22,357 nt of DNA from a virus: the UHGV virus genome UHGV-0078062; one strand, 5' to 3'. Below, piece by piece: positions 17,494 to 20,739 of this stretch. Below the pieces are notes generated by a model, which was not told the origin of the DNA, made no database searches, and saw only the letters and a list, made by a program, of their open reading frames with translations. Both the position numbers and the translations under genes were made by a program. Position 1 is the first letter of the stretch. The number at the start of each line of letters is the position of its first letter.

Positions 17494-19740
17494 ATGTCAG
17501 ATATCACCGCAAATGTTGTGGTAAGCATGCCTTCGCAACTCTTCACTATGGCTCGTTCTTTTAAAGCCGTAGCCAATGGCAAAATTTATATCGGTAAAAT
17601 TGACACTGACCCGGTAAATCCTGAAAACCAGATTCAGGTTTATGTGGAGAATGAAGACGGTTCTCGCGTTCCTGTTTCGCAACCAATCATCATTAACGCT
17701 GCTGGATATCCGGTATATAACGGACAGATTGCCAAGTTCGTAACTGTGCAAGGCCATTCTATGGCTGTTTATGATGCATATGGTGCACAGCAGTTCTATT
17801 TTCCGAATGTTCTTAAATATGATCCTGATCAGCTTAAAGTATCTCTATCAGGGGAAGACGGTCTTAAATACATCGGGACATGCCCTGATATAGCAATGTT
17901 AAGGACAATTGAGCCTGAGCGAGATCAGCAAAAGATTTTCGTCGACTTCCACACTACAGGCATGAAGCCGACAGTATCAGGTGATACTGGTGGTGGTCTG
18001 TTTGTGGCCGATTTCACAGATTCTACTTCTGCAGATGATAACGGCATGGTCATTGTCACTGTGGGTGGTAAACGCTGGAAACGTGATCTTCAAGGTAAGG
18101 GGTACGTAACACCACGTATGTTTGGAGCGTGGATGGATGCTCCATATATTGACTGGAGTACTATTCAGGCCACAGGGTATCCTAGAGCGCCAAGCATGGG
18201 GGGCGTTGATTTAACAGGTGTAACAAATGATGGATTAGCACTTAATAAAGCTTATCTAACTAAACTTCCTGTTTTCATAGACCAGCCTATATATATTGGT
18301 AACACTCAAATTGACATTAGCCAGTTTAGATGGGAAGGGATTAGTCTAAATCTATATGGGATTAATCCACAAAAAAGTATTGTTTATACATCAGGAAGTG
18401 GTGGTTTTGTTATGGGAAGTTGGGGGCACAATCTTAAAGTAAAGAATATGTGTTTTCGCAACGCTGACGATGAATATTCAGGTAGCCCATTGGTCATTTC
18501 TGGTCAAACACAAACCTTTGGCGGGGGTAGTGAATATGATATTAAAAATAACATATTTCTACATTATAAATTTGCACTTCCCTTATCATGCTTTGTCAGT
18601 AATGTTACAAACAACCAAGCATATGATTGTATCTATGGTTTCGGTTTGGCTGGCACATCTACTACATTCTCTTCCAACTGGGCAAGACATTGTAATGTTG
18701 GGTATCTTTGGGGGGCTGCAATAGATAGAGAAACATATGAACCAATTATAAGTCCTTACCCATTAATGTACACTAGCGCAATGAATATTGCAGCTGATGG
18801 TTGTGAGTTACCGCATAAATTCTATCAGTTCAGGTCTTTAAGTATTGATGGGTTTGGAGTTGAGGGTGTTACAGGTGATCATGTTCTTGATTTTTCTGAG
18901 TTAGAAATAAACAGTAGATTTTCAACCATGATTATAGATGGTGTTTCTGTATGGTTACAGGAATCAAACAGCCAAAATGTTACACATTTTGTGGAGTTAC
19001 CTCCAGATGAACAAACAACCCCTGTTTCCGTTCAATTTAGATCTGGCTATGTAACAGCATATAAAGGCATTTCCTTTTTTAAGAACTCAGAAAATTATCA
19101 GAGCCAATACCAATGTCGTGGTTTTTCTTTTGGTGAAACATTTATCTTTCAGAAGGAAACCACTGGTAGCGCAGTATCCGAAGAGTATGTAAGAGGATTC
19201 ATCTCTCATGGAAGGACATACGGTGATCATACAGGAATGGGATTTAGAAATGGATCTGACGGAGTTGTTTTATCAGCAAAAAATTTCGAATCTGCAGGTG
19301 TTTCAGCTGTATATCCACAAGTAAAAACTGAAAATGCAACAATCCTAGTACCATGGGGTAGATGTATTGATATTTTAATTTGTGAACAAGGTGAGGTATC
19401 TAAATACAAAAATGGTGTTTTCATTGCTGGTGAAATTACAATAATTCCAATATCTCAAAATGGAGTAAACACCTCACTGGCAACAGGAGGTAAAATTATA
19501 TTTAGTATAAGCGGAAAGGATCAGGCAACCTTGTCTTCGTCAGGTGTTTGGGTTAATAAAATACAAGGAGACAAGACTCTTGACGGGATATCTGTATCAA
19601 AAATAACAATTGGCACTCAAGTATTTATTAGAGTTAATTTTCAGAACGCGCAAATATCCCAAGCGATTGTCCATATGACACTAACGTCTCAGGGATATTT
19701 GCATTACTATGATAAAAGATGGAAGGTTAACAATCCATAA
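17494..19740 (+). CDS. Tailspike protein: P22 gp9-like N-terminal head-binding domain fused to a divergent receptor-binding domain
   Basis: First ~113 aa ([11 protein letters not shown]...[25 protein letters not shown]...[13 protein letters not shown]...NVLKYDPDQ) closely follow recalled P22 tailspike; the remainder is unrelated to the P22 endorhamnosidase sequence; GGAG SD 7 nt upstream of ATG 17494 (the ORF-track start at 17446 is rejected). Confidence 0.9.
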
Positions 19741-20739
19741 TTATATTACTTTTCTAAGCAAAGGGATTTTGCTTAGAATTATTGATATGCAATATGACAT
19801 TAAAAAATAAATGATTGTTAGCAATGGTATCATGAAATATGCGTTTTCTTGATTATACCCGAGTCTAATTTCTCTAACAAAAAAGAAATGGACGAAGTAT
19901 ATACCAAATGAAACATTTGATATTGATGTAAATAAATTCATTAATCTTTTGCTAATTATTTTTGAGTATGACATGCATAATGTAAATGAAGAAATAACAC
20001 ATATTAATACAAGTGGAGATGTATTTTTAAAGAAAAACTGCTCAGGCCTGCCTGTTATTTCAGACCACCAACTAGATGCCATTGATGTTAACAGGCACGA
20101 CATAACAATAATCACCAATGGTATCACTGCATTGCATTTTTTTATTTTATCGTTATATCTCCTTATTATTGCCCCAATAAGAATATATATCCCATTTTCA
20201 GACACTAGTTTTACATCAAACCATGTTACCTTCATTATCGTTTTATCAACTACAGGGACAATGGAATTTGAGTAAAAAAGCATGCTTACAATAATTAAAA
20301 TGTAATATGTTGGTATGTGTTTTAATGAGTTGCAAATTATTGGTAAAAACATATATATACAAATATATGCATACATAAACCAAAGGTGTACCTCACTTGG
20401 TTGAAATATAGAATTATATGATTTGTTGTTAATCTCTGTATTGTAGATATAATATACCACCCACCAAAATATGAATGGTATTATCAATCTCGACACTCCT
20501 TTTTTTAGGTGTGCTGTTGGGTTTATGTTTTTTTCATAAAAAAGGTATCCAGTGATAAGAAAAAAAAGACCTATACACTGCCTTGAAAAAGAACTGTATA
20601 AATTAACAATCCACCAATGATCTCCAAACTGCATAAAAAAAGCACCTGAAGAATGAAGTAAAACAACTAGAAATATAGCCATGGAGCGAGCTATATGCAC
20701 TTCATTTAACTCTATTCTATTTTGTCGAATATCAGACAT
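19741..20739 (-). CDS. oac: O-antigen acyltransferase (acyltransferase-3 family, Oac-like) integral membrane protein
   Basis: 332 aa with multiple TM helices; N-terminal acyltransferase-3 signature (ELNEVHIARSMAIFLVVLLHS); visibly AT-rich; sits between tailspike and integrase as in Sf6, whose Oac is 333 aa as recalled. Confidence 0.8.
   Translation of the reverse strand: MSDIRQNRIELNEVHIARSMAIFLVVLLHSSGAFFMQFGDHWWIVNLYSSFSRQCIGLFFLITGYLFYEKNINPTAHLKKGVSRLIIPFIFWWVVYYIYNTEINNKSYNSIFQPSEVHLWFMYAYICIYMFLPIICNSLKHIPTYYILIIVSMLFYSNSIVPVVDKTIMKVTWFDVKLVSENGIYILIGAIIRRYNDKIKKCNAVIPLVIIVMSCLLTSMASSWWSEITGRPEQFFFKNTSPLVLICVISSFTLCMSYSKIISKRLMNLFTSISNVSFGIYFVHFFFVREIRLGYNQENAYFMIPLLTIIYFLMSYCISIILSKIPLLRKVI

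Follow-up and report, generated by a model that had tools for sequence, protein, structure and literature searches.

In phage Sf6, the gene for the endorhamnosidase tailspike (gene 14) and that for an O-antigen acetylase (oac, gene 15) stand beside the integrase gene int, and seroconversion genes are located near int-att (PMC8787464). In phiV10, a Uetakevirus of E. coli O157, the oac gene converges with the tail fibre (receptor-binding protein) gene across a gap of 12 nucleotides (nt), and the record of its product describes acetylation of the O157 antigen and immunity to superinfection. We analysed a 22,357-nt stretch of the viral genome UHGV-0078062 (the window), in which the gene for a tailspike of 748 amino acids (aa) meets, tail to tail, a gene for a 332-aa acyltransferase of the AT3 family. 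In our estimate, with a probability of about 70%, this locus is the receptor module of a P22-like phage integrated at argW, in which a tailspike that binds, and most probably cleaves, O-antigen is linked to an acyltransferase that would mask the same receptor. The arrangement is that of the known Sf6/phiV10 seroconversion paradigm and involves no new mechanism. What is new is this uncharacterised pair of receptor-binding domain and acyltransferase, the evidence for its exchange as a block, and its link to the O83 and O32 serogroups.

The window and Sf6 represent the same phage type. Their head-binding domains share about 89% nucleotide identity, and the ejection proteins, tailspike, convergent acyltransferase, integrase and argW-type attachment (att) core follow each other in the same order, presumably with the same logic of receptor recognition and receptor masking. 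In contrast, no similarity between the receptor-binding domains was detectable beyond aa 116; the two stop codons are separated in Sf6 by a 33-nt spacer with a GC-rich terminator and in the window by 0 nt; and oac, with a G+C content (GC) of 0.42, is not markedly AT-rich, compared with 0.29 for the window acyltransferase. The likeness to phiV10 resides in the acyltransferase, since phiV10 Oac shares 27% identity over 95% of the length and is an AT3-only protein of about 335 aa (GC 0.31). In the window, as in Sf6 and phiV10, the acyltransferase gene lies between the receptor-binding protein gene and int and converges with the former. However, phiV10 belongs to another genus, with another receptor-binding protein and another O-antigen (O157), and an identity of 27% is too low for the substrate specificity of its Oac to be transferred.

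Five independent lines of evidence indicate that the distal part of the tailspike and the acyltransferase behave as one transferable unit, in agreement with an earlier note on this DNA, which had proposed their joint acquisition. The argW prophage of E. coli strain 573 (L002) is near-identical to the window and differs by just one contiguous block, which spans the gene junction (Table 1). Identity in the flanks is 99.4–100% over 17833–18620 and 98.8–100% over 20700–20900, and inside the block it falls to 60.4% over 18701–19740 in the tailspike and 57.3% over 19741–20739 in the acyltransferase. The strain 573-type pair recurs, at 87% nucleotide identity from tailspike aa ~121 through the acyltransferase, in an unrelated dsbB-adjacent island (L022 6001–9306, also L023), which is not P22-like and whose tailspike has a CBA120-type Tail_spike_N anchor. 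The tailspike of this island is split by a frameshift (465 + 266 aa) and the convergent 332-aa acyltransferase is intact, suggesting that the acyltransferase was retained after decay of the phage.

In 8 of 8 contigs among the matches listed, the exact 748-aa tailspike directly adjoins the 332-aa acyltransferase. To the right of this constant pair lie at least three different modules: an integrase of the argW IntS type, one of 387 aa accompanied by lambda-like early genes, and an integrase remnant in strain 22KM0354. Homology with the prophages that carry the 387-aa integrase and lambda-like early genes ends at 20959. Furthermore, in each of the seven distinct contexts inspected, a member of the acyltransferase clade and a tailspike with a receptor-binding domain of this family are neighbours; in one of them (L009) gtrABC lie between the two genes, and the others are tail-to-tail. 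The two proteins also diverge in parallel: between the window and strain 573, the distal tailspike retains 59% identity and the acyltransferase 55%, and between strain 573 and L012 the values are 87% and 80%, respectively. Crossover points in the tailspike are at about aa 120, 217, 330 and 398, and on the right side at the acyltransferase start or in its upstream region. The linkage is not absolute: in strain mip270_04, a third P22-like argW prophage (L019 7001–10309) pairs a 742-aa tailspike of the same family, whose identity to that of the window extends to aa ~217, with an unrelated 349-aa AT3 protein. The L009 locus itself (2124–7449) comprises the same-clade acyltransferase (340 aa), then gtrA, gtrB and gtrC, then the convergent tailspike, and thus shows two different O-antigen modification systems beside one tailspike.

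Sliding-window GC and codon usage are far from uniform across the region. In 300-nt intervals, GC was 0.50 (standard deviation 0.03) in the remainder of the window and averaged 0.336 in an island with a maximum of 0.38 (z = −4 to −5.5); the onset of AT-richness that the earlier note had placed at about nt 18230 lies within about 50–100 nt of the estimated island start (18210). Along the sequence, GC passes from about 0.50 in the backbone to 0.34–0.39 in the distal tailspike and 0.28–0.31 in the acyltransferase, and returns to 0.45–0.49 in the integrase. GC at third codon positions (GC3) is 0.44–0.56 in backbone genes and 0.52 in the integrase, runs through 0.37 (aa 1–113), 0.39 (aa 114–213), 0.27 (aa 214–395) and 0.24 (aa 396–748) along the tailspike, and is 0.27 in the acyltransferase. 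Because GC3 falls too, the AT-richness is not purely an amino-acid effect, and GC3 is alike within each tailspike–acyltransferase pair compared. In lytic phages, the GC3 of the receptor-binding domain (0.34–0.48) is near that of the neighbouring genes of the same phage, indicating that the family is an ordinary phage gene family. In prophages, the domain is AT-rich, like its partner gene and the O-antigen clusters, and the GC of the acyltransferase matches that of E. coli O-antigen clusters (O83, O32: 0.28–0.32). The low GC is compatible both with long co-residence of the two genes and with a shared origin with O-antigen loci, and the data fit both. A low-GC donor, as the lower-GC source of the earlier note would imply, was looked for and not found: in a representative-protein library without taxonomy, the nearest relatives of the acyltransferase beyond its clade have at most 35% identity. 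The single named distant match, from a Lachnospirales metagenome-assembled genome (27% identity), was too remote to count as a donor.

Our analysis supports a tailspike that is a mosaic of three modules, a head-binding domain, a neck and a beta-helix. The mosaic of a P22-type anchor and a different receptor domain that had been proposed is therefore present, with one module more than foreseen and with the additional crossovers near aa 217, 330 and 398. The end of P22 gp9 similarity at about aa 113 (VLKYDPDQ, near nt 17835) coincides with that of the Head_binding domain (aa 1–113); in the PDB, this part matched Sf6 gp14 (alignment of aa 1–116) and P22 gp9, weakly beyond aa 113. It shares 88–96% nucleotide identity with many Lederbergvirus-type tailspikes and with about 1,140 E. 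coli genome records. The neck is common to tailspikes that are not P22-like: in the PDB search, aa 118–213 matched the N-terminal domains of CBA120 TSP2 (5w6p, 6w4q) and Pantoea WceF (6tgf), and the 97% nucleotide identity between mip270_04 and the window stops at about 18144. The precomputed Pfam assignment PF27114 ‘Phage_tail_beta’ probably maps to this domain; it is absent from the protein P0023, which lacks the neck region.

For the beta-helix region (aa 215–748), neither single-sequence nor profile search gave a match in the PDB, where the anchor and neck only were matched, and the Pfam-A scan gave no family at E ≤ 0.01; NCBIfam holds no family for either the tailspike or the acyltransferase. 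An AlphaFold2 model of aa 114–748, computed as a monomer from an alignment of 27 homologues, has a mean predicted local distance difference test score of 76 (at least 87 across most of model residues 121–390) and adopts a right-handed parallel beta-helix of the pectin-lyase type. Its structural neighbours are glycoside hydrolases, lyases and epimerases, with CBA120 TSP2, Acinetobacter phage tailspikes and WceF at the top ranks of the Foldseek search. Three acidic residues, D435, E457 and D466, are invariant in 27/27 homologues, including a Providencia protein of 23% identity, and we guess that they are candidate catalytic carboxylates. The check by structure prediction proposed earlier thus returned a beta-helix, and the homologues show invariant acidic residues. 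Judged from fold and sequence, the tailspike is most probably an O-antigen endoglycosidase (glycanase), and the three invariant residues are consistent with a putative homotrimer that has this activity on O-antigen.

The receptor-binding domain had been called novel, and it does lack a PDB or Pfam-A match. However, it belongs to a small family with 28 other matches, including published lytic coliphage genomes, and the exact tailspike protein is already in NCBI under a generic name. Both members of the pair carry generic names publicly, and PHROG 33504 includes a near-identical entry of unknown function. The family occurs in podo-, sipho- and myoviruses, where it is joined to anchors of the P22, CBA120 or T7 type. 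Exchange of receptor-binding domains across coliphage genera tracks O serogroup (Pas et al. 2023, PMC10408124), and the modular exchange and serogroup specificity described in that paper agree with the varied anchors found here. The list of validated serogroups in its abstract does not contain O83 or O32, O83 is mentioned once, among the host serogroups for the receptor-binding protein of another phage, no mention was found of co-transfer with an O-antigen-modifying gene, and the term ‘acetyl’ occurs in the reference list only. Among the relatives, one 102-kb contig (L006 5001–7220) joins the P22 head-binding domain to this receptor-binding family (P0016, 47% identity) next to genes for anaerobic ribonucleotide reductase, and neither an integrase nor an acyltransferase gene is near the tailspike; it is probably a large lytic phage using a P22-type anchor.

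The acyltransferase matches Pfam Acyl_transf_3 (PF01757; E 5e-34) with residues 13–323 against profile positions 3–325 of 326, has no SGNH domain, and matches PHROG 3333 ‘O-acetyltransferase’ (E 1e-13). It is a polytopic integral-membrane protein with multiple hydrophobic segments. The motifs R18-x10-H29, FFLITGY and SFGIYFVH are present in an alignment with Sf6 Oac, phiV10 Oac and an AT3-SGNH protein; the functional role of such AT3 motifs (R-x10-H, FFxISG, S-x-G-x-Y-x-x-H) comes from studies of OafA and Oac. Its closest characterised relative is phiV10 Oac (E 3e-27), and its clade is isolated: among 1.84 billion representative proteins, one cluster was found at 54% identity and the next at 35%. 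Context and the phiV10 annotation suggest that the enzyme acetylates O-antigen and blocks adsorption. The label ‘oac’ used in the earlier note holds for the AT3 family and fails as a statement of orthology to Sf6 oac, since BLASTP against Sf6 Oac gave E 1.4 and Sf6 was absent from the tblastn matches at E ≤ 1e-5.

As had been noticed earlier, the stop codons of the two genes abut, TAA being followed directly by TTA. In contrast, the remaining cassettes examined and Sf6 have a 22–33-nt spacer with a GC-rich hairpin between the stops. In the window, the terminator-like hairpin falls within the final acyltransferase codons. At the other end of that gene, a Shine-Dalgarno-like GGTGG precedes the ATG, and a promoter scan found a promoter-like site at 20784–20755 with 9/12 matches to the consensus. 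The upstream region is 98.8–100% identical in 22KM0354 (L001) and strain 573 (L002). No right-hand boundary sequence common to all cassettes was found, the upstream region being common only to the window and these two. Dam/OxyR-type phase variation is known for P22 gtr operons; for the acyltransferase it finds no support, as the 244-nt upstream region contains a single GATC.

The carriers point to a candidate receptor. Among 5,426 complete E. coli genomes, the full cassette is present in one, 22KM0354 (99.4% identity), whose O-antigen cluster is annotated O83; strains 573, with the sister allele, and mip270_04 are O32. These are the three complete genomes that carry the family in a P22-like prophage, and all are O83 or O32. 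Because the wzy genes of O83 and O32 occur in only 35 and 9 of the 5,426 genomes, 3/3 carriers fall within 0.8% of genomes. The two O-antigen clusters are syntenic; protein identity between them is 56% for Wzx, 42% for Wzy and 53–56% for three transferases. In addition, a lytic relative of 48% identity is named after NRG857c, which is listed as O83:H1 in the genome collection. That the receptor-binding family targets O83/O32-type O-antigens, and the window allele that of O83, has in our view roughly even chances. A literature search for O83-specific tailspikes, O83/O32 O-acetylation and the NRG857c-named phage gave nothing usable.

We propose the following mechanism by analogy with Sf6 Oac and phiV10 Oac, which share the convergent layout. 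The tailspike would attach to the virion via the P22-type head-binding domain, and its beta-helix would bind, and most probably cleave, the host O-antigen during infection. In the lysogen, the acyltransferase, most probably transcribed from its own promoter, would O-acetylate the same O-antigen, and would in this way shift the serotype and hide the receptor from phages that have such a tailspike, as Sf6 Oac and phiV10 Oac do. Homologous recombination may exchange the distal tailspike and the acyltransferase together, by crossovers in conserved tailspike segments on the left and at the start of the acyltransferase or upstream of it on the right. The two genes would be kept linked and exchanged together because both must match one glycan.

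Several observations weigh against this reading. The distal tailspikes of L004 and L009 are 90% identical and their modification genes are unrelated (AT3-SGNH versus AT3 plus gtrABC), and lytic relatives of 43–48% identity (Kagunavirus-like, Drexlerviridae, Ackermannviridae and T7-like) possess this domain and lack an acyltransferase. The match to the promoter consensus is weak, and promoter-like sites are no more numerous here than in shuffled sequence. The structural model is a monomer with low confidence at model residues 450–493, and the candidate carboxylates were chosen by conservation alone. As for the receptor, the assignment of the window allele to O83 derives from one complete genome and a family-level association, the contigs identical to the window are of gut-metagenome origin with no host serotype attached, and the O32 strains 573 and mip270_04 have widely differing variants of the receptor-binding domain.

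Some of these points would be expected if the receptor-binding domain and the acyltransferase had been acquired independently, with the slot between tailspike and integrase simply serving P22-like phages as a site for accessory lysogenic-conversion genes (morons) and with adjacency and low GC being coincidental, as membrane acyltransferases and O-antigen genes are AT-rich everywhere. The same slot takes gtrABC or oac as different cargo in P22 and Sf6 (PMC8787464), and the unrelated modification genes of L004 and L009, the unrelated AT3 protein of mip270_04 and the lytic relatives devoid of an acyltransferase fit such an origin. We nevertheless consider it unlikely, since the differences from strain 573 form one uninterrupted block that runs over the gene junction, between flanks of 99–100% identity, the strain 573-type pair recurs in an unrelated island, and the pair is constant while the integrase module changes. 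Moreover, the acyltransferase clade was found only beside this tailspike family, and a GC3 of 0.24–0.27 in both genes is not explained by the amino-acid content of a membrane protein alone.

The joint receptor module that we favor could also be directed at another glycan: the tailspike may target a capsule or other exopolysaccharide, and the acyltransferase may modify this polysaccharide or a different envelope polymer. Capsule depolymerases from phages of Acinetobacter and Klebsiella, together with WceF, an exopolysaccharide enzyme, make up many of the closest structural neighbours, and in the P22-like phage CUS-3 the same head-binding domain carries an endosialidase for the K1 capsule. The beta-helices of CBA120 TSP2, the Acinetobacter AM24 and Fri1 tailspikes and Pantoea WceF are just 10–14% identical to that of the window and come from other phage families; neither the substrate nor the catalytic residues of these depolymerases can be transferred to it. 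The restriction of the three complete-genome carriers to two related and rare O serogroups, the similar divergence of the sister cassettes (55–59%) and of the O83/O32 clusters (42–56%), and the annotation of phiV10 Oac as O-antigen-acting make a capsule target improbable. The deacetylating activity that the earlier note had considered for the tailspike is less probable still. Deacetylating tailspikes exist, e.g. phage G7C gp63.1, and pairing with an acyltransferase that supplies or restores the substrate of an esterase spike removing O-acetyl groups would be suggestive. In the window, however, the model shows a beta-helix of the pectin-lyase type throughout the C-terminal region, which includes the invariant Asp/Glu/Asp, its structural neighbours are glycoside hydrolases, lyases and epimerases, and no SGNH or esterase domain was found in Pfam, PHROGs or NCBIfam. 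On these grounds a glycanase is more likely than a deacetylase.

Within the preferred reading of an O-antigen receptor module, a stronger proposition is that the pair is a co-evolving ‘recognise-and-mask’ cassette. Its alleles would have diverged in step with the O83/O32 clusters (about 55–59% for the cassette; 42–56% for wzx, wzy and the glycosyltransferases), it would move as a block between unrelated backbones, and its acyltransferase would outlive tailspike decay. We put this forward tentatively, as somewhat less probable than the serogroup assignment. If such co-evolution is general, the partner gene could predict tailspike specificity, and vice versa. The locus offers a testable case of temperate phages keeping receptor-recognising and receptor-masking enzymes matched, here in one recombination unit with no spacer. 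The uncharacterised beta-helix family and the isolated AT3 clade are candidate reagents for O83 and O32 E. coli. Serogroup O83 includes LF82 and NRG857c, two Crohn's-associated adherent-invasive strains, as well as the probiotic A0 34/86, and the pair is of interest for phage therapy, for serotyping and for O-antigen variation that may exist within O83.

Table 1. Features of the tailspike–acyltransferase locus and its surroundings in the window (a dot marks features without strand; ORF, open reading frame).
Feature	Position	Strand	Basis
SLT-domain ejection protein	14629–17022	+	
Arc/Mnt-family repressor gene	17112–17372	−	
Tailspike, 748 aa	17494–19740	+	ORF call
P22-type head-binding (particle-attachment) domain, tailspike aa 1–113	17494–17832	+	Pfam PF09008 Head_binding, E 4e-67, profile 1–113 of 113
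Neck/intermediate domain, tailspike aa 114–214, common to non-P22 tailspikes	17833–18135	+	PDB sequence matches
Predicted right-handed parallel beta-helix receptor-binding, probable glycanase domain and C-terminal domain, tailspike aa 215–748	18136–19740	+	
Compositional island, GC 0.334 vs 0.50	18210–20980	.	Best two-breakpoint likelihood segmentation, log-likelihood gain 77
Block swapped relative to the strain 573 prophage, tailspike aa 398–748 and acyltransferase aa 17–332	18687–20689	.	Dense differences vs L002
AT3-family acyltransferase, 332 aa	19741–20739	−	ORF call and Pfam
Terminator-like AT-rich 12-bp hairpin followed by T-rich tract, for the late (tailspike) transcript	19752–19778	+	Terminator scan and RNA fold of the junction
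Acyltransferase upstream region, right arm of the cassette	20740–20959	−	
Spacer between acyltransferase and integrase, 244 nt			
Tyrosine integrase, IntS/argW type, outside the cassette	20984–22177	−	Pfam Arm-DNA-bind_3, Phage_int_M, Phage_integrase
att core ATGGTGTCCCCTGCAG at the prophage–argW junction (context only)	22302–22317	+	Exact match to the core of Kapi1, Sf6 and HK620

The window is the late region and right end of a P22-like (Lederbergvirus-type) temperate prophage of E. coli integrated at argW. Its virion genes are 95–97% identical to those of Sf101, Kapi1 and CUS-3-type phages, and, judged by the upstream ORFs and annotated relatives, the tailspike gene is positioned downstream of the gp7/gp20/gp16-type ejection protein genes of the P22-like virion module. 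A longer tailspike ORF from 17446 is an artefact of ORF calling, because annotated relatives start at the 748-aa start. The ORF list of the window contains no gtrA, gtrB or gtrC between tailspike and int. The integrase is 96% identical to IntS of strain 573. The att core sequence is common to Kapi1, Sf6 and HK620 (PMC8787464), and tRNA-Arg is annotated at the corresponding position in the strain 573 prophage. ARAGORN returned no tRNA because the end of the window cuts the tRNA-Arg gene argW, of which only the 3' part after the att core (22302–22357) is included. In 22KM0354, the prophage end (L001 9476–9559) adjoins ybhB and bioA and retains a C-terminal integrase remnant only, which points to rearrangement or a defect there.

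Upstream of the tailspike gene, the Arc/Mnt-family repressor gene is interrupted at codon 32 (nt 17278) by a premature stop; its counterpart in the prophage of strain 573 is an intact 86-aa ORF. Four contigs from gut and other metagenomes (L025, L027, L028 and L031; e.g. ERR589442, human gut) match the window at 100% identity along as much as 8.9 kb. No intact Arc/Mnt gene was called in such contigs, a 42-aa fragment being present in L028 and none in L025 and L027. Their identity to the window indicates that the element circulates unchanged in gut communities.

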